From Lachnoclostridium sp. UBA3262 (GTDB taxonomy: Bacteria > Bacillota > Clostridia > Lachnospirales > Lachnospiraceae), in contig DEUM01000009.1 of NCBI GenBank assembly GCA_002362575.1, positions 43,639 to 107,638 of the forward strand: a DNA stretch of 64,000 nt, written 5' to 3'. Below are positions 1,760 to 31,904 of this stretch, one piece after another; position 1 is the first letter of the stretch, and the number at the start of each line of letters is the position of its first letter. The position numbers and the translations under genes were made by a program. The notes below the pieces were generated by a model. The model made no database searches, had not been told where the DNA came from, and worked only from the letters and a program-made list of their open reading frames with translations.

Positions 1760-2089
1760 ATGAATATTCGAATCGGAAGCCGGAAACGAATCCAGTTTAC
1801 GGACAAGACACATCCGGCGCTTGGAATTATTTCGGTTGTATTAGGTTTTTGTTCCTTTGTTCTCCTTCTAGTACTCTGTATTTTTTCTGGTAAGGCAAGG
1901 GGAATGTCAGGAATAGAGGCTGGAGTATTAGGAATACTGGACTTTATCATCAGCATGGTAGGTTTTATTATGGCAGTAAAATGTTACCGGAAAGAAGATA
2001 TTTACCTTTTGATGCCTTCGATTGGAGCAGCCCTCAATGGTGTTCTTGTCATATTTTGCATGATTTTGTATGTTATAGGCGCGGCGTAA
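1760..2089 (+). CDS. Small 3-TM membrane protein (DUF6142-like)
   Basis: FTDKTHP N-terminal motif followed by three hydrophobic helices; RBS aggggata. Confidence 0.55.
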   Translation: MNIRIGSRKRIQFTDKTHPALGIISVVLGFCSFVLLLVLCIFSGKARGMSGIEAGVLGILDFIISMVGFIMAVKCYRKEDIYLLMPSIGAALNGVLVIFCMILYVIGAA

Positions 2090-2864
2090 GGTTTTTCAGT
2101 CGCGGTGACACGGATATGTTCTTGTAAATCTCATGATATTGTGCATCCGACAGTTCTTCAATGTAATTGACGGGATACTCCTTTTCGTATCCCTTTGTAA
2201 TCAATATGGAAGCGGCCTTGTTATATGCAATGGCTGCTTCTATTTCTTTGTCATAGCGTCCGACAAGAAAGTCGCCGTTCCAATGAATTTTTGTCTCGTA
2301 GTATACCGTTCCTTTTCTTTCTTTACGAAATACCCCGTGGTAGTGGTTGATGATTTCAATATTTTCATAACGGAAATCCCGGCTGTCTCCATTGACAAAA
2401 CGAAAATCCCGTCCGGCAACGGCATAATTTTTAATGCCATACCGTGACAGAATATTTATCTGCATCCCATAATCGGCGACAAAGAGGTGTCCGCCGCGGC
2501 GGCTGATACTGCGTGTAGAATAATAAAACAAATCTTCAATGTCAAAGGTCAGGAAGTCGTGTTCGGCAAAATAGTAGTGAAAGAAGCGTTCCTTTAGATA
2601 GATGGGAGTCTTTATGTACATGCCGTTGTCCCGAAAATTCAGGAGTATAACCCATTTTTTAAAAGGAAGGACGCTCGTCCCGGATGAAAACATATCCAGT
2701 GAAATGGTATTGTCATAGAGTAATTTGCCAGCAAGCTGATAAGCGCTGGAAGCGGATTGTTCATCGGGATAGCTTCCAAGGCTGATGTGTTTGCCGGAAA
2801 AGGTAATGGAACTCCGGTAGTAGGTTGTCCCGTCTTTCTTTTTTGCAGAATACACTCCCGGTAA
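2073..2864 (-). CDS. Protein with two AP2-like domains flanking a degenerate HNH-like segment
   Basis: Start placed at MLPGVY after RBS aaggagg. AP2-like PGVY...HISLGSYPDEQSASSAY and YHGV...LVGRYDKEIEAAIAYN; central VNGDSRDFRYENI. Confidence 0.6.
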   Translation of the reverse strand, partial: LPGVYSAKKKDGTTYYRSSITFSGKHISLGSYPDEQSASSAYQLAGKLLYDNTISLDMFSSGTSVLPFKKWVILLNFRDNGMYIKTPIYLKERFFHYYFAEHDFLTFDIEDLFYYSTRSISRRGGHLFVADYGMQINILSRYGIKNYAVAGRDFRFVNGDSRDFRYENIEIINHYHGVFRKERKGTVYYETKIHWNGDFLVGRYDKEIEAAIAYNKAASILITKGYEKEYPVNYIEELSDAQYHEIYKNISVSPRLKNLTPRL

Positions 2865-2985
2865 CATAGCAGCCTCCTTTCCCTCTGAATCGCAAACTTT
2901 GCTAAATTTATTAGAATATATTATTTTATACAATTAAATTTATTTTAGAATAGAAAAACATAGATTGCAAGAAATTTAATTCGTT

Positions 2986-3002
2986 TGTAACAATTTTGTA
3001 AT
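2986..3002 (+). promoter_or_regulatory. WalR-type box TGTAAC-N5-TGTAAT
   Basis: Exact match to the TGTWAH-N5-TGTWAH consensus, upstream of a cell-wall hydrolase gene. Confidence 0.55.
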
Positions 3003-3060
3003 AAAACTGAAAAAGTCGCATATACTTTTTATAACAGAAGAATTGTTTTAAACGACAAAG

Positions 3061-3777
3061 GTGGTGCAATTTATGAAAGAACATTGGAACAAAAATCATG
3101 TTAGTAAGAATCATTGGAACAAAAATCATTGGGGAAGATACATGTATTGCCTGTATGTGCTTCTGGCGGCTTCGCTGACGGTCGGGTGGTATCCGGAAAG
3201 TCAGGCAAAGAGCTTAAATATGGTTATGGGCAGTACATTACAGAAGATGGAGACAATTTGTCTGCTGAACGAGAATAACCGGCTGTTTCTGCAGGGAATC
3301 GCAGAGACGGAAGTGACGGAGCGCAGGCAAAGCGAGCAGATGGATGAGTACCAAAGACGGGCGGTTAAAACAATTCAAAAGAAAAAGGTAAAGGCAGCCT
3401 CTGGAGTGTCAGCCGGAAGCCGGAGGATTCTTGAGAGAATTGTGGAGGCGGAAGCGGGCGATCAGGATCTAAAAGGAAGGCTCCTTGTCGCCAATGTTGT
3501 GTTAAACCGTGTGAAATCGAAGAAGTTTCCAAACACAGTAAAGGGTGTAGTGTTTGCACACAGGCAGTTTTCTCCGATATCCAATGGAAGCTATTACCGG
3601 GTTCACGTTTCTGGGAAGACAAAGCGGGCGGTTCGAAAAGCCCTTCAGGGCGAAGACCATTCGCGGGGAGCCTTGTATTTTATGTGCCGGAGCGCTTCCA
3701 GTGCAAGGAATGTTGCGTGGTTTGATAGAGACTTAAAGCGACTTTTTAAATATGGATGCCATGAGTTCTTTCGGTAG
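3061..3777 (+). CDS. Cell wall hydrolase (Hydrolase_2/SleB/CwlJ-like); true start may be downstream (MYCLYV)
   Basis: LERIVEAEAG, LLVANVVLNRV, FPNTVKGVVF, QFSPI, GALYF and GCHEFF motifs; N-terminal hydrophobic segment. Confidence 0.85.
   Translation: MVQFMKEHWNKNHVSKNHWNKNHWGRYMYCLYVLLAASLTVGWYPESQAKSLNMVMGSTLQKMETICLLNENNRLFLQGIAETEVTERRQSEQMDEYQRRAVKTIQKKKVKAASGVSAGSRRILERIVEAEAGDQDLKGRLLVANVVLNRVKSKKFPNTVKGVVFAHRQFSPISNGSYYRVHVSGKTKRAVRKALQGEDHSRGALYFMCRSASSARNVAWFDRDLKRLFKYGCHEFFR
3082..3132 (+). repeat. 15-bp tandem repeat, about 3.4 units (cattggaacaaaaat)
   Basis: cattggaacaaaaat / catgttagtaagaat / cattggaacaaaaat / cattgg. Confidence 0.8.
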
Positions 3778-6741: not shown

Positions 6742-7227
6742 ATGAGTTTAAAAAAAGTAGTAGTGTTATTGCTGGCGGTCAGTATGTTAATTGGTGCTGC
6801 ATCGGTTAGTACATCAGCAGAGGCTGCGAAAAAAAAGTATACAAATAGAGAGGTAAAGCTGTTAGCTTCTATTATTTTCTGTGAAGCAGGAAACCAGAGC
6901 TACGCAGGAAAGCTTGCTGTTGGGTGTGTTGTGATGAACCGGAAACGTTCTCGTTCCTTCCCAAATACAGTAGAGGGCGTTATTCGTCAGAAAGGACAGT
7001 TTGGTCCGGTTTCTTCCGGTAAGTTTAAAAGAGAATTAAAAAAGTATAAAAAGGGAGCTTATAAGAAGGGAGCAAGAAAGCAGTGCGTGAAGGCGGCAAA
7101 AGAAGCCTTGTCCGGTCAGGGATATGTTAAGACTCGCGGGAAAAAGGTGAATATGAGAAGATATCATTTCTTTAACGGACATCTGCGACGTGCCAAACTT
7201 CGTATTGGAGGACATGATTTTAAGTAA
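6742..7227 (+). CDS. Secreted cell wall hydrolase (Hydrolase_2 family)
   Basis: Signal peptide ending AEA; LLASIIFCEAG, AVGCVVMNR, FPNTVEGVIRQKGQF and IGGHDF motifs. Confidence 0.85.
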   Translation: MSLKKVVVLLLAVSMLIGAASVSTSAEAAKKKYTNREVKLLASIIFCEAGNQSYAGKLAVGCVVMNRKRSRSFPNTVEGVIRQKGQFGPVSSGKFKRELKKYKKGAYKKGARKQCVKAAKEALSGQGYVKTRGKKVNMRRYHFFNGHLRRAKLRIGGHDFK

Positions 7228-7228
7228 A

Positions 7229-7299
7229 CTTCAGCCCAATTAGTTCTGAAGCTTTGCTTCAGCTCAATTAGTTCTGAAGCTTTGCTTCAGCTCAATTAG
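7229..7299 (+). repeat. 28-bp tandem repeat, about 2.5 units (cttcagctcaattagttctgaagctttg)
   Basis: Directly adjacent units with no spacers; each contains a cttcag/ctgaag inverted pair. Confidence 0.85.
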
Positions 7300-7440
7300 C
7301 CATGAAGCCCGGACTGTCATGTGAAATCACATGACAGTCCGGGCTTTGGCTAAGCGCCACATACAAAAAAAGAAGGTTAGTCAGCCTTTTGTGTGCAAGC
7401 ACCCAACGGCTGACCAACCTTTTTTTTTGTGCATGGCTAA
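7296..7440. repeat. 145-bp nested palindromic element (MITE/REP-like)
   Basis: 9-bp terminal inverted repeat ttagccatg/catggctaa enclosing the hairpin agcccggactgtcatgtg-aaat-cacatgacagtccgggct and a second hairpin aaaaaaagaaggttagtcagcc...ggctgaccaaccttttttt. Confidence 0.7.
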
Positions 7441-7518
7441 ATAGTTATAAAAATTTTGCTTTTCTAAAGGGCGTCTTTGTGGTATGATGAAAGAAGATAT
7501 GCTAAGGAGGCTTTTTTA

Positions 7519-9189
7519 ATGTCAGAAATACAGGAAGAAATTACAGTAAAGAATTTTATAGAGAATGAAATTGATAAAGACCTTCAAGAAGGAATTTACG
7601 ATAAAGTTATGACGCGTTTTCCTCCGGAACCGAACGGATATCTTCATATTGGTCATGCTAAGTCTATCATTTTGAATCAGGGGCTGGCAAAAAAATATGG
7701 TGGTACATTTAACCTACGGTTTGATGACACGAATCCCCAGAAGGAGAAGGAGGAGTTTGTCCATTCCATTTTAGCGGATGTCGAATGGATCTGCGGCGAG
7801 AAGCCGCCGGTGTATTTTGCGTCAGATTATTTTGATAAAATGTATGAATGTGCGGTAAAGCTAATTGAGAAAGGGAAAGCGTTTGTTTGTGATTTGTCGC
7901 CGGAAGAAATGAGAGAATACCGGGGTACGCTGACAGAGCCGGGAAAGAATAGCCCATACCGTGACCGTTCTGTGGAAGAAAATTTAAAGCTGTTTGAGGA
8001 GATGAAGAACGGAAAGTGCGAGGATGGTTCCCGTGTGCTTCGTGCCAAGATAGATATGGCTTCTCCGAATATTAACATGAGGGATCCGATTCTTTACCGT
8101 GTTGCTCATCTTCATCATCACAATACAGGGGATAAATGGTGTATTTACCCAATGTATGACTTTGCCCACCCGATTGAAGATGCAGTGGAGGGAATCACAC
8201 ACTCGATTTGTACACTTGAGTTTGAGGACCACAGACCGCTTTATGACTGGGTGGTGCGGGAATGTGAGTTTGAGATACCGCCGCGCCAGATTGAGTTTGC
8301 GAAAATGTATCTGACAAATGTGATTACCGGTAAACGATATATTAAGAAGCTGGTAGAGGACGGCATTGTGGATGGCTGGGATGATCCGCGGCTTGTCACG
8401 GTAACGGCATTGCGCCGAAGGGGATATACGGCATCTTCCATTCGGAAGTTTATGGAATTATGCGGGGTGTCTAAGTCGAACAGCTCGGTTGACTATGCTA
8501 TGCTTGAGTATTGCATCCGGGAAGATTTGAAAATGACACAGCCCCGTATGATGGCAGTGTTAAATCCGATAAAATTGATTATTGACAACTACGAGGAAGG
8601 TAAGATAGAGTATCTCGATGTGCCGAATAATCAGGAAAATCCGGAGCTTGGGACGAGAAAAGTTCCATTTGCACGAGAACTTTATATTGAGCGGGAGGAT
8701 TTTATGATTGAGCCTCCCAGAAAATATTTCCGTCTGTTTCCCGGCAATGAGGTCCGCTTGATGAGTGCTTATTTTGTAAAGTGCGTGGACTATAAGACCG
8801 ATGAGGAGGGAAATGTAACGGAAGTGCATTGCACATATGATCCGGAGACAAAGAGTGGTTCCGGATTTACCGGACGAAAAGTAAAGGGGACGATTCACTG
8901 GGTGGCTGCGCCTACTGCTGTGACGTCAGAGGTTCGTCTTTATGAAAACATAGTAGATGAGGAAAAAGGTGTGTACAATGAGGATGGGACAGTAAATGTC
9001 AATCCAAATTCGCTGACAGTGCTGACAAATTGTTATATGGAGCCGGCATTGGCAGAGGCAAAGCCGGAAGATAAGTTCCAGTTTATGCGCACTGGATTTT
9101 TCTGTGTGGATTCAAAAGATACGACAAAGGAGCATCTGGTGTTTAACCGGATTGTATCACTGAAAAGTTCGTATCGTCCAAATAAATAG
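7519..9189 (+). CDS. glnS: Glutamine--tRNA ligase
   Basis: [18 protein letters not shown] (HIGH), [30 protein letters not shown] and KGTIHWV motifs; start placed after RBS aaggagg. Confidence 0.95.
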
Positions 9190-19675: not shown

Positions 19676-19915
19676 TTGAAGGAAGTAAGCAAAGTTACAC
19701 GGGTGCTTAGCATTTACAATAAACTGGTCGGAGGGGAAATTGTAAATAAAGTATTTGAGGCGAATCGATTTGGTGTGAGTGAGAAATCAATTCAACGGGA
19801 TATTGACGAGATTCGAACATATTTATCGCAATCAATTGTTGATGGATATGGAATAGTTGGCGAAGTAGTTTATGATCAAGCGAAAAAGGGATATCGCCTG
19901 AAGCAGATTGTTTGA
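19676..19915 (+). CDS. Stand-alone winged HTH resembling the N-terminus of WYL-domain regulators (no WYL domain)
   Basis: RVLSIYNKLVGGEIVNK..EANRFGVSEKSIQRDIDEIRTYL...YDQAKKGYRL, followed by a stop codon. Confidence 0.7.
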   Translation: MKEVSKVTRVLSIYNKLVGGEIVNKVFEANRFGVSEKSIQRDIDEIRTYLSQSIVDGYGIVGEVVYDQAKKGYRLKQIV

Positions 19916-19998: not shown

Positions 19999-20952
19999 GT
20001 GGTGACAATAGTGAGTATAGTAATTGGTTCATTTAATATTAGGGATTTGAATTTTTCGAATGAAAGTAAAGATGGAGAAACACAAAAAAGAGATTTTCCA
20101 CTTATAGCAGATATGATAATTAAAGAAGGGTTTGATGTAGTTGCTATTCAAGAAGTAAATGCTCCCATGGCTTTGGAGAGAATAGTATTTTATTTAAATA
20201 AAAAGAAAAACCTTTTACATGAATGGGAATGCGACGCAAGTGGTAAAGCTGCAACTACCAATAATGATCCGGAAGGTTATGGATTTATTTGGAATAAAAA
20301 AAGAATTAGACTAATGGATATTTCAAGGAAAAATAATCCTACTTTTTATAATTGTGCTGGGGGAAAGAATGTCATCCGACCTCCATATTATGGCAGATTT
20401 ACAACAAGAGGTTTGCCTGGCGGTTCTAATTGTGAGATTAGGCTGGTCAATACGCATATTCATGATGCTAGTAGAGAACTTGAGCGTATTGCAGAATTCG
20501 ACGTTTTGGTCAAGCAGGTTTTGCCAAGGATATGTGATCATAATGAATTGCCAGTATTTAATGAGATGATGCCAGCATATACATTTTTACTTGGTGATTA
20601 CAATCTTAGGCTTGATAAGGGCGAGAGAGCCGATGTAAGAATAGAAAGTATCACACCAACCTTATATACAAACAAAAAGCGATATTATAAAACAGTACAA
20701 GAGGAGAAAACTTCCTTAAAAACGATTAAGATGATTGATCAAGATGCCGACTTGCGAGATTGTTATAAAAGCAATTATGATCATTTCACATATGAGTTTG
20801 ACTTGATTAGAAAACTAAAGCTACATGAAGAACGTGTTGAGGCTCTGGGGAAGTATTTTGGAAAAGAAAAGTCGGCACAAGAAATTCTGCAGTTATATAG
20901 GGAAAAAGTTTCTGACCATGTGCCAATAAAAATGACTGTGGACTTAAAATAA
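19999..20952 (+). CDS. Endonuclease/exonuclease/phosphatase (EEP, DNase I-like) family protein
   Basis: Complete catalytic motif set: SFNI, DVVAIQEV, VNTH, LGDYN, YDH and SDHVPI. The start could be the GTG at 20011. Confidence 0.85.
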   Translation: MVTIVSIVIGSFNIRDLNFSNESKDGETQKRDFPLIADMIIKEGFDVVAIQEVNAPMALERIVFYLNKKKNLLHEWECDASGKAATTNNDPEGYGFIWNKKRIRLMDISRKNNPTFYNCAGGKNVIRPPYYGRFTTRGLPGGSNCEIRLVNTHIHDASRELERIAEFDVLVKQVLPRICDHNELPVFNEMMPAYTFLLGDYNLRLDKGERADVRIESITPTLYTNKKRYYKTVQEEKTSLKTIKMIDQDADLRDCYKSNYDHFTYEFDLIRKLKLHEERVEALGKYFGKEKSAQEILQLYREKVSDHVPIKMTVDLK

Positions 20953-20973: not shown

Positions 20974-23559
20974 ATGCATAACGAGGTACTCGGGATTGAT
21001 AAACATACTGAAATGGAAAAACGACAGGCTGCTTACGCATTGAATATGTGTACTGTTTCGGTTTCTCAAATTGTGGATTATAACGATGCCTATATTATGG
21101 AACAGGAATATGAAGCGATTTTGAATAATTTGAATCTTAAACAGATGCCCAAAGACGAGGCACTACTAAGAATATTGTCTGAAATCATGAATACAATTAC
21201 ATTTTTCCGTATTCAGGATATTAGAAAAAAACAAATAGAAAAGAAATATGAATCACGTATGAAGAATGCAATCTGGTCGGCTGTGCCAAGTCTAAATGTA
21301 GTAGTTTCGGGGAACCCCGTAGCAATTGCATTGGCATTAGTTACACAAATAGGCTCAGGATATATGAATTATAGAAAAGAAAAAGCTAGTGCTGGAACCG
21401 ATAAAGAAGATGCTGAAATAGAACTGGAAATTACTGCAATTGAGCAATTGAATTCATTAAAAAGAGAACTTTTTACTACAGCTTGGAGATTGGCAGATGA
21501 ATATGATTTCGAGGATGAATGGAGACTGACAGAAAAACAAATAAAACAATATAATGATATTTTGATTGATTATGATGAATTAAGAAAATATGAACGGTTA
21601 GATGCAATGAAAGAGAATTTTTCTGCATATCCTCCATTTTGGTATTATATTGGAAATGCAGCCAACAATATTGCCAAAAGCCACGAACTTGAGTTGAGTG
21701 TTGAGACCAGGCAGAAGTATAAAGAAATTGCATTAGCTCATTTTGAAAAGTATGAGGAAGTGAGTGAGAACAGTATTCTTCGTCAGGATCAATTAAATTC
21801 ATCATGTGCTTTGGAGCATGTTGAATTATTGCTAGAAGACAATAATTTTGACAGAGATAAGGTGGTAAAACTAATTACTAAAGCTGCAAAAATGTCTGGC
21901 AATGCATTTGATGTTCTGCAGGTATGCTCAATTGCATTTTTGAAAATAAATGAATTAGAAGGTGCAAGTAGAATTCTGAGAATTCTTGTAAATGAAGATT
22001 ATAACAAAACTGTAAATGCTCAATTATTAAGTGGAATATATGTAAGAGAAAAAAATAAAATTGATTATGATATTCTTACAACTAGAGTTGCACCTCAATA
22101 TCTTTATCCTCTGCCTTTGCAAGGAGAGGATGAAGCTGTTTTAGAAGCAAAATTTGAACAACAACAAAAGAAGGTACTAAAAGGGAAATATAAAAAAGTC
22201 CTTGAGAAGACTATTGATAAGTATTCAATGGAATTGTATAGAGAGATTTCTATTTTTGACTTAGATGAAGAATATTCCGATGATTTTTTTGAAAATAGTA
22301 AAAGGGCTAAGAAAACCCGTATTATGTCGGCAAAGAGAATGTTTCTAGATGATTCCAAGCGCGATTATTATCTTGAAAGAATGAGTTCAATTAATCTTCC
22401 GACAGAATATGTTGATATATTAGAGAATATGTTTGGGGCATTATTTAAAACATCAATTTATTCAGATCCTGTTCTTCAAGGAGAGGCTTTAGATAGGACA
22501 AGCAATGCGATTGTTACTTATCGAGATGCTATTAATTCAATTCAGGAAGATATTAAGAACCAATCATTTTCATTGAAAGATTACGAAAGGATTCAGAGGG
22601 TGGGTATATATCATTTTGTGAAAGATGCATTTAACATGTTATATCATCAGACGTGTAAAATGATTGACGGTGCTGTAATGAACGATTTATTATCAATGGA
22701 AGGTGATTTGTTATCTTACTGTGATAGAGTAGGGATTGCAATGCCAGAAATTTCCTTGGGTGGAGAGTGCAGTAATAAAGATTTTGATGAACCGAAGGAA
22801 TTGTTTGATGTGAGTATGTTTGGAGCCAAGGCAATATCTGTTAAGCGTGATTTGGACTATATTAACAATATGCTCGCTTTTATTGAGAATAAGATGAATG
22901 ATGCAAATGCAGGAGAAAACTTGGTTATTTTATACAGAGGTAATGTAGAATTTGAGCGATATTTCAATGATGTAGCATTTGAAAAATATCCTTCACTCAA
23001 GTCAAATTCATTAATGATAATAAAAAGTAATGGAAAGACAAGGACTGACTTAATCTATACAACGGAAGGTATTGTTTATGTTCAGAAGGGCAAGGTTAAG
23101 AAGAAAACACCATATGCAGATGTTATATATGCACAAGATAATTTGGTGTTATTCGGAACAAAGTATAAGAACGACTCAATCAACATTGCAGTTTTATATG
23201 ACATTGTAAAGGGAATTGACAAGAAGTTTATCAACGTCAACGATTTAGAACAGAAAATTGAGTATGTAGGAAAAATTGATGCTAAATCATTAAATGAATG
23301 GTTTAAGAGTCGCCCAGATGCTATGGATGATAGTGTAACAAGGGTTTATGCTTGGCCAAATAAGGAATTATTTAATGGATTAGGCTATTGCTTGCAGGAA
23401 GATTTAGACAGTGAAAGGTATTTGCTTCAGTTTTATTATGATAATGAATCAAATGATATTATTGGATTACGAATTGTAGAGTTTGATGCAATTGATGAAT
23501 CATTAAAGTCTAAACTGAACGGTGCAGGTGGTGTAATTCAATTGGAAAAAGGGGGGTGA
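20974..23559 (+). CDS. Large hypothetical protein: hydrophobic segment plus coiled coil, TPR-like helices, PH-like segment and a C-terminal module shared with the downstream genes
   Basis: 861-aa ORF with RBS aagga. The domain reading is by eye only. Confidence 0.75.
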   Translation: MHNEVLGIDKHTEMEKRQAAYALNMCTVSVSQIVDYNDAYIMEQEYEAILNNLNLKQMPKDEALLRILSEIMNTITFFRIQDIRKKQIEKKYESRMKNAIWSAVPSLNVVVSGNPVAIALALVTQIGSGYMNYRKEKASAGTDKEDAEIELEITAIEQLNSLKRELFTTAWRLADEYDFEDEWRLTEKQIKQYNDILIDYDELRKYERLDAMKENFSAYPPFWYYIGNAANNIAKSHELELSVETRQKYKEIALAHFEKYEEVSENSILRQDQLNSSCALEHVELLLEDNNFDRDKVVKLITKAAKMSGNAFDVLQVCSIAFLKINELEGASRILRILVNEDYNKTVNAQLLSGIYVREKNKIDYDILTTRVAPQYLYPLPLQGEDEAVLEAKFEQQQKKVLKGKYKKVLEKTIDKYSMELYREISIFDLDEEYSDDFFENSKRAKKTRIMSAKRMFLDDSKRDYYLERMSSINLPTEYVDILENMFGALFKTSIYSDPVLQGEALDRTSNAIVTYRDAINSIQEDIKNQSFSLKDYERIQRVGIYHFVKDAFNMLYHQTCKMIDGAVMNDLLSMEGDLLSYCDRVGIAMPEISLGGECSNKDFDEPKELFDVSMFGAKAISVKRDLDYINNMLAFIENKMNDANAGENLVILYRGNVEFERYFNDVAFEKYPSLKSNSLMIIKSNGKTRTDLIYTTEGIVYVQKGKVKKKTPYADVIYAQDNLVLFGTKYKNDSINIAVLYDIVKGIDKKFINVNDLEQKIEYVGKIDAKSLNEWFKSRPDAMDDSVTRVYAWPNKELFNGLGYCLQEDLDSERYLLQFYYDNESNDIIGLRIVEFDAIDESLKSKLNGAGGVIQLEKGG

Positions 23560-23563
23560 TCGT

Positions 23564-23941
23564 ATGGGAATAGGTGCAATGATAGTATCATTGGTAGTTG
23601 CTGGGCTGATTGTTACAACTGTAATTACAATTGTTTACTTGACTGCTAAAAAACTTAAAGAATTAATTCAAAAAAGAAAAGAAAAGAATAGAAAATCCAA
23701 GGTTGCATTTGGAGAAACGAGAAAAATTGTAAAAGAAAATGCTAGGGAAATTCTAAAGAATGCGCCGTCAATGACGATGGATGATCTTGAGAGAACATGT
23801 GAAGAGACTCCATATTTTGTTGTTGACTATGACTCTGAAACCGATGAGGTGTCGGATTATGCAACAATAAAAACTGACAGCACTGACGAAAAGATTGAAA
23901 GTATTATGAACCAGAATGATGGTATTATTTTATTTGATTAG
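23564..23941 (+). CDS. Small single-pass membrane protein (shared-module family)
   Basis: N-terminal TM; C-terminus YDSETDEV...DEKIESIMNQNDGIILFD. Confidence 0.75.
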   Translation: MGIGAMIVSLVVAGLIVTTVITIVYLTAKKLKELIQKRKEKNRKSKVAFGETRKIVKENAREILKNAPSMTMDDLERTCEETPYFVVDYDSETDEVSDYATIKTDSTDEKIESIMNQNDGIILFD

Positions 23942-23950
23942 GAGGAAAAA

Positions 23951-24337
23951 ATGGTAAGAGAAATATTAATTGGAACAGGTGGAGTAATTATTGTTGCGGC
24001 TATTATTGCGGCGATAAAATATAAGATGGCTCATCAAGATGATGGTGAAATTGAAAGAATTTTTGTTGATGAGTTGAATATGGGTGAAATTAAGAAATGG
24101 TTTGTTGATAAGATGACTAATGATTCGATGATAGGTATTGTTTTTCTTCCTACAAAAGAGAATGTTAATAAGTGGAAAGTAAAAATGCCTGAGCAAAACA
24201 ATGTTTTAATTCAACTTATTTATAGTAAAGCTAATGACAAGATGATTTCATACAGAGAAGTAGGATATGCTGAAATTAGTGAAAAGGTAAAGAATCTTTT
24301 GGATATGAATGGCGGAACTATAGTAATCGAAAAATAA
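23951..24337 (+). CDS. Small single-pass membrane protein (shared-module family)
   Basis: RBS ggagg; N-terminal TM; EIKKWF...LIQLIY...SEKVKNLLDMNGGTIVIEK. Confidence 0.8.
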   Translation: MVREILIGTGGVIIVAAIIAAIKYKMAHQDDGEIERIFVDELNMGEIKKWFVDKMTNDSMIGIVFLPTKENVNKWKVKMPEQNNVLIQLIYSKANDKMISYREVGYAEISEKVKNLLDMNGGTIVIEK

Positions 24338-24356: not shown

Positions 24357-24623
24357 ATGCTTGGGTGGTTATTACTTGGAGCATTGTTCACAGCAGCGGT
24401 AATTATAATATGTGTTTCATATTTAGATAAAAAAACGGCAATGAATAAGCTTAGAGAGAAGAGTATCCATAAAGGCGTAGTGAGGGATATTTTTCAATCA
24501 GGAAATGTTACACATATAAAACTTGACGCTATAGATACAGATGGTAATGAGAAAGAAGTTGAGTTTGAGGCAGATGCTTACAACTCCTATGAAATTAGAA
24601 AAGGAATGACAATAGTAGCATAA
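24357..24623 (+). CDS. Small single-pass membrane protein
   Basis: RBS ggaggtg; TM LGWLLLGALFTAAVIIICVSYL followed by a short beta-rich tail. Confidence 0.75.
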   Translation: MLGWLLLGALFTAAVIIICVSYLDKKTAMNKLREKSIHKGVVRDIFQSGNVTHIKLDAIDTDGNEKEVEFEADAYNSYEIRKGMTIVA

Positions 24624-24637
24624 AGGAGAAAAACGAA

Positions 24638-25027
24638 ATGTCTGAAAGTTTATCTAAATTGTCAAAAGCTGTAGAGGCATTTACAGATGTATTGACAGAA
24701 GGTATAGATTCAAAGAAGAATATTGGAATATATAAATACGAGGATTTTATTAAGTTTTTTAGAGAAAACAGAAAAGAGTATTCTATTATCAAAAAATGTA
24801 CTATTTCTGTGACAAATGTTAATGAATTTGATGGAGTTAGGTTTCCAGAGAAAAAATTTCTTATTAGAATTGTTTTATTGGATAAAAATAATAGTCCCAT
24901 TTCAATTAATGGTAAAGACGATGAAATCTTGGGAAATATAACAATTGCTAACTCGATTGACAATAAATTAGTAGAATTTATGGGTAAAAGAACAGAGAAG
25001 ACTGTTGTCTGGAAGGGAGAAAAATAG
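24638..25027 (+). CDS. Small soluble or peripheral protein, probably a divergent member of the shared-module family
   Basis: RBS aaggag; YEDFIKFF...FLIRIVLLDKNN...SIDNKLVEFM. Confidence 0.7.
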   Translation: MSESLSKLSKAVEAFTDVLTEGIDSKKNIGIYKYEDFIKFFRENRKEYSIIKKCTISVTNVNEFDGVRFPEKKFLIRIVLLDKNNSPISINGKDDEILGNITIANSIDNKLVEFMGKRTEKTVVWKGEK

Positions 25028-25354
25028 ATGTTGCCATTAATACCAATTATAGCCTTGATAGGTCCTGCTCTAGCTATGGGAGCGGTAGTATATTTAGCGG
25101 TAAAACTTACTATTTCTTTTTTAAAAAAATATAAACAAAAGAAAAATTCAAAGATAATGGCTGCTTATGTTGGGGACTTGATGAAAAATGCTCCAACGAT
25201 GTCTTTAGACGGTTTGGATGATGAGGATGTTGTTCTTGCTGAGTATGATGAAGACGAGGATGAATTAGTCCAGGATATTAGTATTTCGAGAGATACTGAT
25301 GAAAAGGTATCCGGAATAATCAAAAATAATGGTGGAATCGTGGTGTTTGAATAA
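25028..25354 (+). CDS. Small single-pass membrane protein, paralog of 23564-23941
   Basis: KNAPTMSLD vs KNAPSMTMD; DEKVSGIIKNNGGIVVFE; start abuts the upstream stop (tagatg). Confidence 0.8.
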   Translation: MLPLIPIIALIGPALAMGAVVYLAVKLTISFLKKYKQKKNSKIMAAYVGDLMKNAPTMSLDGLDDEDVVLAEYDEDEDELVQDISISRDTDEKVSGIIKNNGGIVVFE

Positions 25355-26697
25355 TGTTAGTTTATTTATACTTTTCAAAAAATAAAATATCCCAAATAAA
25401 TAATCTTGATTATGTGAAAGAAAATGTTGCAAAGAGTATAACGAAAGCTTTTAATATGTCTGCAACTATTAAGCGCTCTGATATAAGTGTACGATGTGGC
25501 AAAATATCAAAGGGTATTGATGTGTTTTTAGTAATAGATTCGAATCCATTTGCTGGAAATAGTGAAACTGCGATTGCAATGACTAAAATAAAGGAGTTAA
25601 TTAAGACTATTATTCAGACGGATCAATCTAGTCAGCTCGAATATAAAATTACATATAAGATTGAGAAAAACCATTCACCTATGGGGATAGAATATATGGG
25701 AGGTGGTGTTTTGCAAGGTAATGAGTCTGTTCACCAATTCGATAATGATGAAGAGGTGTCTGAACTTGATTATGCAAGTAGAGCTCAAGCATATGTCCCA
25801 GTAGCCCCAGCATATTCTTTTGATAGAGTAATTCTTCCCGAAGATGTTCTAGAAAAAATTGACTCTGCAATTAATATCCTTAGATATGAAAGAAGAGTTT
25901 TTCAAGAGTGGGGATTGTATGAAATCCAACCGAACCCATCCTCATCATTAAGTTTTTATGGACCATCTGGAACTGGAAAAACTATGGCGGCCGAAGCTAT
26001 AGCAGATAAACTTAGAAAGAAAATACTTAAAGTGAGTTATGCTGACGTTGAAAGTAAGTACCATGGCGAGGGACCTAAAATGGTTAAAGCTATTTTTTGG
26101 GCAGCAGAAAAAGAAGATGCGGTTTTGTTTTTTGATGAGGCGGATTCTTTGCTGTCAAAAAGATTAACTAATGTTTCGCAAGGATCTGAACAAGCAATTA
26201 ATTCGATGAGAAGTCAACTATTGATTTGCCTAGAGGAATTTAAGGGTATCGTGATTTTTGCTACTAATTTGGTTGTGAACTATGATAATGCATTCTTAAC
26301 ACGTTTGATTAGTGTTGAATTTAAATATCCGGATGCACCAACTAGAAAAAGAATATGGGATGTTCACGTTAAGTCTTCTGCAAATAAAAAATTAAATATA
26401 CCATTGGCAGATGATGTTGATACTGAAGAATTGGCGGGAAAATACGACTTTGCAGGGCGAGAAATCAGAAATGCTGTTATCTCAGCCTGTGTTAATGTTG
26501 CTATGAATGAACGTGAAATTGTAAAACAAGAAGATTTTATAAAAGCCTGCGATAAAATTGTTGAAGAAAAAGCGGGGGTTGCTAGTGCTAGTGATCATAC
26601 AACAATGAGTGAAAAAGAGAAGGAAGCTCTTAAGCAAGCGTTAATTTCAAAGATAAAAGAAGGAGGTATTACTAATGTTTCTACGACCACTGAGTAA
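25354..26697 (+). CDS. Classic-clade AAA+ ATPase with a novel N-terminal domain
   Basis: Walker A GPSGTGKT, pore loop SKYHGEG, Walker B VLFFDEAD, SRH IFATNL..NYDNAFLTR, lid FAGREIRNAV. Confidence 0.9.
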   Translation: MLVYLYFSKNKISQINNLDYVKENVAKSITKAFNMSATIKRSDISVRCGKISKGIDVFLVIDSNPFAGNSETAIAMTKIKELIKTIIQTDQSSQLEYKITYKIEKNHSPMGIEYMGGGVLQGNESVHQFDNDEEVSELDYASRAQAYVPVAPAYSFDRVILPEDVLEKIDSAINILRYERRVFQEWGLYEIQPNPSSSLSFYGPSGTGKTMAAEAIADKLRKKILKVSYADVESKYHGEGPKMVKAIFWAAEKEDAVLFFDEADSLLSKRLTNVSQGSEQAINSMRSQLLICLEEFKGIVIFATNLVVNYDNAFLTRLISVEFKYPDAPTRKRIWDVHVKSSANKKLNIPLADDVDTEELAGKYDFAGREIRNAVISACVNVAMNEREIVKQEDFIKACDKIVEEKAGVASASDHTTMSEKEKEALKQALISKIKEGGITNVSTTTE

Positions 26698-27076
26698 TGA
26701 TCAAAAAGAGTTGTTTTTGAATTTGGCTTTAGCCGCAGCATCGGCAAATAATCTAATTGAAGATTCTGAGAGACTTTTGCTTGTTGCATATGCAGATGAA
26801 ATGTCTATTGATGTTAATAAGGCATCAATGATGCAGATGGATGAAATATGCAGAAAATTAAAACAAATTTCTAATTCAAAAGAGTTAAATCAGATAGCTT
26901 TTGAGATTGTTGGCATGATGATGATCGACAATGAATATGACAAAGAGGAGAAAACATTTATTTTGAAGATGGCTGAAATTTTTGAAATTCCACAAAGTCG
27001 AATAGATAAAATGTTTAGTTGTGCTAATGAGTATTCGGCGTTGATAAAGAAAATTAATGTTTTAATGTATGAGTAA
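26675..27076 (+). CDS. TerB-like (tellurite-resistance TerB fold) protein
   Basis: Two helical halves: ELFLNLALAAASANNLIEDSE and MMMIDNEYDKEEKTFILKMAEIFEI. Confidence 0.7.
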   Translation: MFLRPLSNDQKELFLNLALAAASANNLIEDSERLLLVAYADEMSIDVNKASMMQMDEICRKLKQISNSKELNQIAFEIVGMMMIDNEYDKEEKTFILKMAEIFEIPQSRIDKMFSCANEYSALIKKINVLMYE

Positions 27077-27096
27077 TCAGATTTAATTCAAGATTG

Positions 27097-27128
27097 AAGG
27101 TGCGAAGAAATTCGCGCCTTTTGTATTT
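27097..27128 (+). terminator. Intrinsic terminator closing the AT-rich operon
   Basis: aaggtgcgaa-gaaa-ttcgcgcctt followed by ttgtattt. Confidence 0.75.
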
Positions 27129-27444
27129 ATGGACTTTGGGCTGTTGACTACGAGCGAGTTTCTCAAAAAAGAAACGAAGCCGTAGGAAACAAAAAACTAC
27201 CTGCTATGTGGGTGGAAGATAAGGCGCTATACAAAAAAATACCTTTCCAGTTTATCTCACACGAAATGGATGTGTAAATACTGATGACGAAGAAAATCTG
27301 GGAAAGATATTGTTGTATGAGTCTTTATTATGTATAGGTTATTGTTGGAGAAGATGGAATTTTAAAATTCTTATAAAGTGTGAAAGATAACCACAATATA
27401 TAAATTAGGAATAAGCTAGAGAAGTAAAAAATACCATATTAGCC

Positions 27445-27785: not shown

Positions 27786-27823
27786 ATAAAGACTTGAACC
27801 TGACAGATGATTTTCTAATCAAT

Positions 27824-27853
27824 TGTTACTATTTACAGCTATATGGAATAACA
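27824..27853. mobile_element. 30-bp imperfect palindrome flanked by a duplicated atcaat
   Basis: atcaat-[tgtta...taaca]-atcaat in copy 1 versus a single atcaat in copy 2. Confidence 0.55.
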
Positions 27854-28685
27854 ATCAATCGTGTGATGTCAGATGCTACTTATGGAGAGGAGTTTGCCAA
27901 AATTCTTTTGGGAACTATTTTCCATAGAGAAATAGGACCGTTGGTTGTCATCCCACAGAAGGTAGAGTATGGGATAGAGACAGAATGTCACGGTATCCGG
28001 TTAGATGTATATATGGAGGAAAAAGATGCCGGTATTTTTGACATGGAAGCAGACCAGAACTGGTCATTAAAAGACAGACAGTCACTGCCAAAGAGAGTAA
28101 GGTTATACCATGCAAAGATAGACGCCGGGGTTTTGGAAAGCGGAGGCGAGTATAGAGACTTGCGGAATGTCTGTGTCATCTTTATTACAACCTATGATCC
28201 ATTTGATAAGAAACGTATGGTTTACACGATTAAGAATTGCTGCACAGAGGAGCCGGACCTCCCCTACGAGGATGGTGCAAGGACAATTTTTCTCTATACA
28301 AGGGGAGTGAATGGGAATCCGCCTGCAGATTTGGCAGAATTGCTCCGGTATATGGAGGACACGACGGAGAAAAATGTGTGCAACGAAAGCATTAGAAGAC
28401 TTCATGAGATGGTTCAGCATACAAAACAGGATGCGAAAGCGGGGTTGGCTTATATGAAGTGGTATGAGATTGAGACAATGTGCAGGGAGGAAGGGGAATT
28501 TTTATTTGCTATTAAGATGGTAAGGAAGTTATTGCAGGAGCAGCAGACAATAGATAAGATTTCCCAGCTTACAGAACTGCCATATACCTTGATAGAGAAA
28601 ATCATGGAACAACTTAATCTTCATCCGGAATGGGATAACGAACAGATATTAGAGAAGATAGAAAAGTAAAATCATTAGGAATTGT

Positions 28686-31019: not shown

Positions 31020-31904
31020 ATGCTGAAAAGGACACTAAAAGACTTGAACCTGACGGATGATTTTCTAATCAATCGTGTGATGTCAGATGCTACTTATGGA
31101 GAGGAGTTTGCCAAGATTCTTTTGGGAACTATTTTCCATAGAGAAATAGGACCGTTGGTTGTCATCCCACAGAAGGTAGAGTATGGGATGGAGACAGAAT
31201 GTCATGGTATTCGGTTAGATGTATATATGGAGGAAAAGGATGCCGGTATTTTTGACATGGAAGCAGACCAGAACTGGTCATTAAAAGACAGACAGTCATT
31301 GCCGAAGAGAGTAAGGTTTTACCATGCCAAGATAGATTCCGGGGCATTGGAGAGCGGAGGCGAGTACAGGGATTTGCGGAATGTCTGCGTCATCTTTATT
31401 ACAACCTATGATCCATTTGATAAGAAACGTATGGTGTACACGATTAAGAATAGTTGCACAGAGGAGCCGGACCTTCCCTACGAGGATGGTGCGAGAACGA
31501 TTTTTCTCTATACAAGGGGCGTGAATGGGAATCCGCCTGCGGATTTGTCAGAATTACTCCGGTATATGGAGGATACCACGGAGAAAAATGTGTGCAACGA
31601 AAGCATTAGAAGACTTCATGAGATGGTTCAGCATACGAAGCAGGATGCGAAAGCGGGGTTGGCTTATATGAAGTGGTATGAGATTGAAAGTATGTGCAGG
31701 GAGGAAGGCAGAGAAGAAGGCAGAAAAGAGAGGCAATTGTTTACGATTAAAATCATAAAGAACTTAGTAAGCCGGAATGAGTCAACAGAAGAAATATCTA
31801 AGCTTATCGAATTGCCATATGCGTCGGTAGAGGAAATCGTGAAACAATTCAAACTTCATCCGGAATGGGATAACGAACAGATATTAGAGAAAATAGAAAA
31901 GTAG
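31020..31904 (+). CDS. Rpn family recombination-promoting nuclease / putative transposase (PD-(D/E)XK_2), intact copy
   Basis: LTDDFLINRVM, GIRLDVY, DMEADQ, RVRFYHAKID, VCVIFITTYDPF, IFLYTRG and REEGREEG motifs. Confidence 0.85.
   Translation: MLKRTLKDLNLTDDFLINRVMSDATYGEEFAKILLGTIFHREIGPLVVIPQKVEYGMETECHGIRLDVYMEEKDAGIFDMEADQNWSLKDRQSLPKRVRFYHAKIDSGALESGGEYRDLRNVCVIFITTYDPFDKKRMVYTIKNSCTEEPDLPYEDGARTIFLYTRGVNGNPPADLSELLRYMEDTTEKNVCNESIRRLHEMVQHTKQDAKAGLAYMKWYEIESMCREEGREEGRKERQLFTIKIIKNLVSRNESTEEISKLIELPYASVEEIVKQFKLHPEWDNEQILEKIEK

Follow-up and report, generated by a model that had tools for sequence, protein, structure and literature searches.

In a 64,000-nucleotide stretch of a Lachnoclostridium sp. 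UBA3262 contig (the window, by which we mean that whole stretch), we examined a gene encoding an AAA+ ATPase near the end of an operon of ten closely packed forward-strand genes, whose intergenic gaps range from -23 to +21 nt (Table 1). The reading we favour, if not by a wide measure of confidence, is that this ATPase serves as the motor, powered by ATP, of a multi-gene conflict system that is undescribed, moves horizontally and is probably anti-phage, of the abortive-infection type. Such a system would have an apparently invariant core, composed of the AAA+ protein and two to five paralogous small proteins that carry a common alpha+beta module and are mostly membrane-tethered, and a seemingly variable periphery of toxic effectors, a larger module-bearing protein, a TerB protein and WYL-type repressors. 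The logic, a conflict system centred on an NTPase in which effectors can be swapped and an AAA protein is the antitoxin, is known; what appears to be new is the AAA family, whose N-domain varies, together with the shared small module. No description of this gene set was found in the searchable literature, PADLOC 2.0, Pfam or NCBIfam, which is not proof of absence, and Kaur et al. 2020 (PMC7159879) makes no mention of TerB or of such a cassette. The genes whose RefSeq labels we inspected are called only ‘hypothetical’ or ‘ATP-binding protein’.

Judged by sequence and predicted fold, the ATPase is a classical-clade AAA+ protein of the protein-unfolding type. It contains a single AAA module (Pfam AAA, PF00004, E 3.8e-24, 86.1 bits against a cut-off of 21.2) and is soluble. 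Its top sequence matches in the PDB are VAT and p97 (2e-35) and Rpt subunits, and an AlphaFold2 (AF2) model (mean predicted local distance difference test score, pLDDT, 80) superposes on the AAA domains of PAN and Rpt proteins over ~270 residues with a target TM-score of 0.83-0.85 and a root-mean-square deviation of 2.4-2.9 Å; placement within the classical clade rests on these hidden Markov model and fold scores. We collected related loci, 83 after removal of redundancy and spread over about nine phyla, called their open reading frames (ORFs) and compared these with the window proteins by iterated profile searches. Walker A, Walker B, sensor-1, a single arginine finger and both pore loops are kept across this set, which argues that the protein would act as an active threading hexamer. 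Each of the listed pore loop 1 variants, which account for 81 of the 83 loci, follows the pattern [KM][YF][HQV]G, with histidine in place of the usual aliphatic residue in ~72; pore loop 2 is strikingly constant (SKRLTNV[TS]QGSEQ). The core also contains an LEEF motif resembling the inter-subunit signalling (ISS) motif, and the AF2 model adds an extra C-terminal helix beyond the lid.

A first-pass annotation, made from the letters of this DNA alone, had already assigned the protein to the unfoldase-type classical clade, and the results above bear this out, as they do its Walker A and B motifs and KYHG pore loop. Its ‘intact’ second region of homology (SRH) did not survive. The SRH reads FLTRL, with one arginine (R317) instead of the classical pair, and the first arginine position of the pair is an invariant Thr or Ser across the relatives. 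A single-arginine SRH is known from some classical-clade members. The source genome encodes nine other PF00004 proteins (contigs C56, C38, C17, C34, C36 and C46), two of them FtsH-sized at 630 and 615 aa, and at E<=1e-60 none of the nine is a paralog of the window ATPase.

The substrate-threading ATPases PAN/Rpt1-6 and Cdc48/VAT are the closest matches in both sequence and fold, and they share with the window protein the aromatic pore loop 1, the conserved pore loop 2 and LEEF. Unlike them, however, the window protein has neither a coiled-coil/OB nor a double-psi-barrel N-domain, has just one AAA module and one SRH arginine, carries histidine second in the pore loop and comes without a proteasome or protease partner. 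It also falls far below every cut-off of the NCBIfam PAN, Cdc48 and FtsH models.

The partners of the ATPase in related loci are small proteins encoded directly upstream. Upstream counts cover the 67 loci in which 2.6 kb or more of sequence is available before the AAA gene; in 59 of these, one to five small ORFs matching the small-protein profiles directly precede it. At least 95% of the small-protein profile matches lie on the same strand and no more than 3 kb upstream of AAA, a zone that holds 9% of the candidate ORFs. The first-pass proposal that the ATPase belongs with the small proteins of its operon therefore holds among close homologs. The usual order is A (transmembrane, ~145 aa), B (transmembrane, ~88 aa), C (soluble, ~129 aa), D (transmembrane, ~115 aa) and then AAA, reduced to C, D and AAA in cyanobacterial loci. 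The D-type, to which s108 of the window belongs, is the gene immediately 5' of AAA in most loci, orthologs of the B-type s88 occur in ~60 loci, and the C-type s129 is the most widely conserved partner, with a strong profile match (E<1e-8) upstream of AAA in 51 of the 67 loci. Matches to the profile of s125 are almost confined to the upstream flank of related AAA genes.

In four of the five small proteins in the window, the N-terminus forms a strongly hydrophobic helix and the residues just after it are rich in Lys and Arg (six K/R within 15 residues in s125); s129 is soluble. From the transmembrane helix and its positive-inside pattern, the C-terminal modules should face the cytoplasm. The A, C and D types and s128 have one common module at hhalign probabilities of 88-97%: the small A-type family aligns to s108 and s129 at 95-97%, and s128 to s108 at 95.8% and to s129 at 88%. 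The same module at the end of the 861-aa operon protein aligns to small proteins of other loci, and in some loci it is fused to M48 or Sel1-repeat proteins. An AF2 model of s129 (pLDDT 81.6) is globular alpha+beta, with a five-strand sheet and no helical hairpin. A Foldseek search of this fold against the PDB returned no significant neighbour (best E 0.036, TM-score 0.25), the s129-family profile matched no PDB sequence, and the small-module profile, searched against 5.8 billion proteins, matched only unannotated proteins without Pfam domains. We also considered a C-terminal ‘GG-hydrophobic’ tail as a shared degron and rejected it, as those residues form the last beta-strand in the s129 model.

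An ATPase encoded next to small membrane proteins invites comparison with Vps4, and the first-pass annotation had drawn this analogy. A Vps4-like recycler would disassemble a membrane polymer of the small proteins, as Vps4 does ESCRT-III filaments. The tight, conserved linkage of a classical AAA+ protein with membrane-anchored paralogous small proteins fits this explanation, as do the conserved pore loops and the extra C-terminal helix after the lid, a feature in common with Vps4/CdvC. The SRH without a ‘PG’ insert and the SKYHGEG pore-loop context may also resemble the Vps4/spastin/katanin group. Unlike Vps4/CdvC of the meiotic clade, however, the window protein has no MIT domain, but a beta-alpha-beta-beta-alpha-beta N-domain in its AF2 model. 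It scores 64.8 bits against the 650-bit cut-off of the NCBIfam CdvC model NF041006, which ranks below PAN, Cdc48, FtsH and IetA, and its nearest structures are Rpt and PAN. Where ESCRT-III has a helical hairpin, s129 is globular, and four of five window small proteins carry a transmembrane anchor. The module is common to the paralogs at the profile level, nothing indicates polymerisation, and no operon protein matches Pfam Snf7 or PspA. The analogy captures the idea that the ATPase acts on adjacent membrane-associated small proteins, but it is structurally unsupported, and we consider a Vps4-like recycler distinctly improbable.

Ahead of the AAA module, a roughly 150-aa unrecognised N-terminal domain had been proposed. 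No Pfam, NCBIfam or PADLOC model matches residues 1-135, in keeping with that proposal, but the extent is nearer 105-135 aa: the AF2 model places a domain of ferredoxin-like topology first and a disordered linker at residues 118-135. Searched alone against 1.84 billion representatives, the N-domain gave nine matches, mostly same-family fragments and none in another context, and the window type looks nearly orphan. A fold search with the whole ATPase model was dominated by the AAA module and is uninformative on the N-domain. Homology of the N-domain to the small-protein module, which would have made a homotypic link of the kind formed by effector-associated domains, was rejected at an hhalign probability below 1%.

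The N-domain varies together with the small proteins. More than 100 full-length homologs of the ATPase are 54-97% identical to it, and a further set has cores 70-73% identical and N-domains that do not align; between loci, cores are 46-77% identical where N-domains cannot be aligned. Compared with loci L006, L011 and L014, the window has an EEP nuclease 31-34% identical, an 861-aa protein 46-48%, a TerB protein 31-39% and an AAA core 72-77%; the N-domain, s88, s129 and s108 give no BLAST match between these loci and the window. Compared with L004, L009 and L010, the core is no more similar (71-75% identity), yet the N-domain (27-35%) and also the small proteins (39-60%) can be aligned. L009 and L010 lack the EEP nuclease and the 861-aa protein, yet their N-domains and small proteins align to those of the window. 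All pairs of 63 loci were scored for detectable similarity, with the transmembrane region of the small protein masked. Within bands of core identity, pairs with similar N-domains tend also to have similar adjacent small proteins (odds ratios of 8-39); the p-values overstate this association because the pairs are phylogenetically non-independent. As N-domain and small proteins are swapped together, we read the N-domain as a specificity element that would recognise its cognate small-protein set.

Around this core, the cargo changes from locus to locus. The EEP subtype, which includes the window, carries an EEP nuclease and a protein of ~870 aa upstream of the core. In the window, the EEP protein matches the NCBIfam MnuA-family nuclease model (2.8e-17) and, weakly, Pfam Exo_endo_phos, and contains the stretches FNIRDL, IQEV, GDYN and SDHVP, which we take to be the catalytic EEP motifs; its orthologs occur in seven non-redundant loci. 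The 861-aa protein matches nothing in Pfam, NCBIfam or PADLOC. A second subtype encodes a Tox-GHH (HNH/EndoVII) nuclease of ~390-470 aa, accompanied in 11 of 11 loci by a ~270-aa protein with no Pfam match (L028:4823-5635 and ten others). A third has a Peptidase_M48-Sel1 protein accompanied in nine of 11 loci by a ~266-aa protein, unlike the ~270-aa one, and usually a radical SAM/SPASM/PqqD enzyme downstream (L059, L064, L065, L068, L044, L050, L057, L060 and L061; in L064, for example, 1915-3546 and 7179-8549). The ~270-aa and ~266-aa proteins may provide immunity against the effectors or inhibit them. The M48/radical-SAM pair resembles an effector module that modifies peptides, and could speak for an output other than a nuclease.

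Regulators of the WYL/WCX type recur, and a profile search found wHTH/WYL genes in 15 non-redundant loci. The window operon opens with a short winged helix-turn-helix (wHTH) gene; at the same position, L001 has a 317-aa PF13280 WYL regulator that is 49% identical to it over 74 aa, and the window gene appears to be without the sensor domain. The whole operon lies on a low-GC island (0.32-0.35 versus ~0.43). Neighbours include a relaxase, Abi_2 and insertion sequence elements, and 64 sampled flanking proteins, surveyed without a matched control, include parts of type I and II restriction-modification systems, MzaB, MADS components and PDC candidates.

The family is distributed as an accessory system would be that is rare and passed on by horizontal transfer. 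When one genome was scanned for each of 185,579 species, 260 relatives of the ATPase emerged, and the best 80 of the 260 loci are from Lachnospiraceae, Oscillospiraceae, Ruminococcus, Bacteroidota, Treponema, Synergistota, Planctomycetota, cyanobacteria, Acidobacteriota and others. At E<=1e-60, the gene was not found in the 24 same-genus and 16 same-order genomes examined and was found in one of 398 same-class genomes. Phage collections gave only generic AAA matches, and plasmid collections one clear family member, on plasmid p1 of Planktothrix agardhii NIVA-CYA126/8 (L088, NZ_LR882935.1 87362-100432). There, a 699-aa Hsp70-like + TPR protein is followed by five small hypothetical proteins, the AAA protein (‘ATP-binding protein’) and an 884-aa DUF87 (HerA-like) protein; a literature search with the Planktothrix accessions gave no match. 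As a cultured cyanobacterium, Planktothrix is a possible experimental entry point. Very patchy spread over about nine phyla with high core identity implies horizontal transfer. Together, the variable effectors, WYL regulators, low-GC island and patchy distribution point to a conflict system, probably an anti-phage one.

The same inventory could instead describe an accessory module for membrane-protein quality control or envelope stress, or a biosynthetic or maturation cluster, in which the AAA protein extracts or unfolds anchored proteins. The partners are membrane-anchored, TerB has historically been tied to stress and membrane association (10.1101/2022.05.11.491447), and processing or chaperone functions are suggested by neighbours such as the M48 peptidase, the radical SAM/SPASM/PqqD enzyme and the Hsp70-like/TPR protein. 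Such housekeeping sits poorly with cytoplasmic nucleases (EEP, Tox-GHH) as the alternative cargo and with recurrent WYL/WCX repressors, as it does with an extremely patchy occurrence over about nine phyla at high core identity, a low-GC island and mobile elements. We therefore judge a quality-control or maturation module improbable, and retain the conflict-system reading.

TerB is the last gene of the window operon. Both ORFs of the junction were found, and the AAA and TerB-like genes overlap by the 23 bp that the first-pass annotation gave. The TerB-like identity it proposed holds at the level of superfamily and profile. Taken alone, the window protein is below the Pfam cut-off (PF05099, E 0.0021, 18.8 versus 24.4 bits), but its ortholog in L028 is above it (6.1e-10, 39.9 bits), and a profile of 18 TerB orthologs matches the TerB-family structures 2ou3 (1.3e-9), 2h5n (2.8e-5) and 2jxu (6e-3); on these grounds the 133-aa protein is a member of the TerB superfamily. 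Of the duplicated acidic (D...E) motif associated with metal binding in this superfamily, the second copy, D85...E92, shows no variation; the first retains E32, but the window protein has Asn in place of its Asp.

The Shine-Dalgarno (SD) sequence of the TerB gene lies inside the AAA codons K-E-G-G, encoded by AAAGAAGGAGGT at 26656-26667. A purine-rich SD-like site precedes the TerB start in nine of nine loci with TerB just downstream, and KEGG in the AAA tail is kept only where TerB follows, homologs without a downstream TerB (e.g. L004) being without it. Since KEGG occurs only where TerB follows and its codons are the SD, its conservation is probably at the RNA level rather than in the protein. 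KEGG had been a candidate part of a degron; it was rejected, being accounted for by the embedded SD.

These signals show that the two genes are translationally coupled here, as the first-pass annotation supposed, and would suit a dedicated AAA-TerB pair in which TerB serves the ATPase as an adaptor, a substrate or a regulator. In five loci (the window and EEP-type relatives) the TerB gene, its SD embedded in the AAA gene, starts 14-26 bp before the AAA gene ends, in four more it begins 1-36 bp past that end, and TerB-ATPase combinations exist in Shango (10.1101/2022.05.11.491447). The pairing is not conserved, however. Only 18 of the 83 loci have TerB; in one it lies 873 bp past AAA, and in eight it is the first operon gene, 3.4-3.8 kb upstream of AAA in seven of them and 2.1 kb upstream in L036. 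Its presence follows the effector (six of seven EEP loci, seven of 11 Tox-GHH loci, none of 11 M48 loci), and loci with TerB and loci lacking it conserve the AAA core to the same degree. With TerB optional, variably placed and following the effector type, the AAA-TerB junction is a real coupling here but not a conserved functional pair, and a dedicated two-gene unit is very unlikely. In our reading TerB is no obligate partner of the ATPase but an accessory of nuclease-bearing subtypes, perhaps with a role as a sensor of metal or membrane state. L004 is the sole EEP-type locus without TerB (L004:10347-12170 region); a 335-bp gap past AAA is followed there by a 495-aa Ser/Thr protein kinase and a LysM protein.

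Several known defence systems share elements with this one. Shango (SngABC) and Bunzi also place a TerB-domain protein inside a multi-gene defence-type operon, and in both TerB has been suggested to contribute to membrane surveillance (10.1101/2022.05.11.491447). Here, unlike there, TerB is small, stand-alone, soluble and optional; no operon protein has a Shango or Bunzi match in PADLOC, and the operon contains no helicase. CBASS offers a likeness in Cap6 (TRIP13-like AAA+) and Cap7 (HORMA), a AAA+ remodeller of small adaptors that holds an immune effector pathway off, but the present operon has no HORMA protein, CD-NTase or cyclic-nucleotide effector, its partners are membrane-anchored, and its ATPase is of another AAA subfamily (PADLOC TRIP13 models match more weakly, 6e-10).

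The best PADLOC match of the ATPase is to IetA of IetAS (Gao_Iet), another single-module classical AAA+ protein of similar length (5.2e-24, residues 77-444 against 5-366 of a 374-position model); this shows relatedness only, as the score with the NCBIfam equivalog model NF042959 is 71.8 bits, where 510 would be needed. PMC13069673 describes IetA, citing Yamamoto 2009, as the AAA-ATPase antitoxin that restrains a protease toxin, and IetAS as having anti-phage activity; we propose the same logic of restraint here. Unlike IetAS, the window operon encodes no subtilisin-like IetS (peptidase S8); its ATPase is partnered by small membrane-anchored paralogs, the cargo of the family is a nuclease or an M48 peptidase, and the N-domain is different and variable.

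For the conflict system that we favour, we envisage a mechanism in which the fast-evolving N-domain of the ATPase would dock on its cognate small-protein complex. The hexamer would then thread one partner through its pore loops, either the cytoplasmic module of an anchored small protein or its homologue at the C-terminus of the large protein linked to the effector. By unfolding this one subunit, the ATPase might dismantle or reset the membrane-tethered complex that holds the nuclease, and would in this way gate it, with TerB modulating only the nuclease-type variants. In uninfected cells the ATPase may restrain the effector, as an antitoxin would, rather than activate it; we lean slightly to restraint because IetA, the only characterised relative from a defence context, is the antitoxin of a toxic protease. 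It is possible, and we suggest it tentatively, that the cassette forms a new kind of membrane-tethered immune complex, in which paralogous anchors of an unseen small fold hold a nuclease or peptidase at the inner membrane, a dedicated classical AAA+ unfoldase reads the complex through its rapidly co-evolving N-domain and, by pulling one subunit through its pore, switches the effector on or off, and TerB couples the nuclease variants to a metal or membrane signal.

Several points weigh against this account. We infer physical interaction and threading, as we do all function, and the direction of control, whether to restrain or to activate, is a guess from one precedent. The lone SRH arginine means that the kinetics of the ATPase may differ from those of model unfoldases. 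Apart from the AAA protein, none of the operon proteins matches a PADLOC model. The M48 subtype with radical SAM/SPASM/PqqD could serve peptide maturation rather than defence. The non-independent covariation pairs and the uncontrolled flank survey belong here too.

In the window, the operon ends at an intrinsic terminator-like hairpin with an 11-pair stem, five of the pairs G-C, and the tail TGTATTTATG. Just downstream, in the same low-GC stretch, are two near-identical genes of the Rpn family (PDDEXK_2), recombination-promoting nuclease/transposase-like, at 27794-28669 and 31020-31904 (TIGR01784, 1.7e-13).

Table 1. Operon genes and sequence features around the AAA+ ATPase gene, in window coordinates.
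Feature	Position	Strand	Details
wHTH regulator	19676-19915	+	79 aa; ORF; short relative of WYL regulators
EEP (DNase I-like) nuclease/phosphatase	19999-20952	+	317 aa; candidate effector
861-aa protein	20974-23559	+	C-terminal ~160 aa carry the shared small-protein module
s125	23564-23941	+	125 aa; N-terminal transmembrane helix and shared cytoplasmic module; KD19 2.69 at residues 6-24
s128	23951-24337	+	128 aa; N-terminal transmembrane helix and shared module; KD19 2.39
s88 (B-type)	24357-24623	+	N-terminal transmembrane helix, short cytoplasmic tail; KD19 2.59
s129 (C-type)	24638-25027	+	129 aa; soluble; shared module without anchor
s108 (D-type)	25028-25354	+	108 aa; transmembrane helix and shared module; stop overlaps AAA start (TAATG)
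AAA+ ATPase gene	25354-26697	+	ORF, 447 aa; ninth of ten operon genes
AAA N-domain	25354-25668	+	residues 1-105; AF2 pLDDT ~90; beta-alpha-beta-beta-alpha-beta
AAA+ core	25762-26601	+	residues 137-416; Pfam, PDB matches, AF2, conservation
Walker A	25960-25983	+	GPSGTGKT, residues 203-210
Pore loop 1	26056-26067	+	KYHG, residues 235-238
Walker B	26128-26145	+	FFDEAD, residues 259-264
Sensor-1	26260-26268	+	ATN, residues 303-305
SRH with single Arg finger R317	within 26293-26307	+	lid follows
Conserved DHT	26593-26601	+	
SD of TerB-like gene	26662-26666	+	GGAGG, 8 nt before ATG
TerB-superfamily protein	26675-27076	+	133 aa; soluble; last operon gene
Intrinsic terminator-like hairpin and T tract past TerB	27096-27131	+	stem 27096-27121

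If the account is true, an unnamed defence-type system is carried by at least 260 species-level genomes in about nine phyla, gut Clostridia and spirochaetes among them, and provides a second tractable case, besides IetAS, of a classical unfoldase gating a toxic effector. Its small module would be a new adaptor fold, fused to effectors much as effector-associated domains are, and the co-varying pairs of N-domain and small protein would suit specificity-swap experiments. For TerB, which occurs in Shango, Bunzi and the ter operon and still lacks a mechanism, the cassette would give a testable context, in which TerB is needed only with a nuclease cargo.

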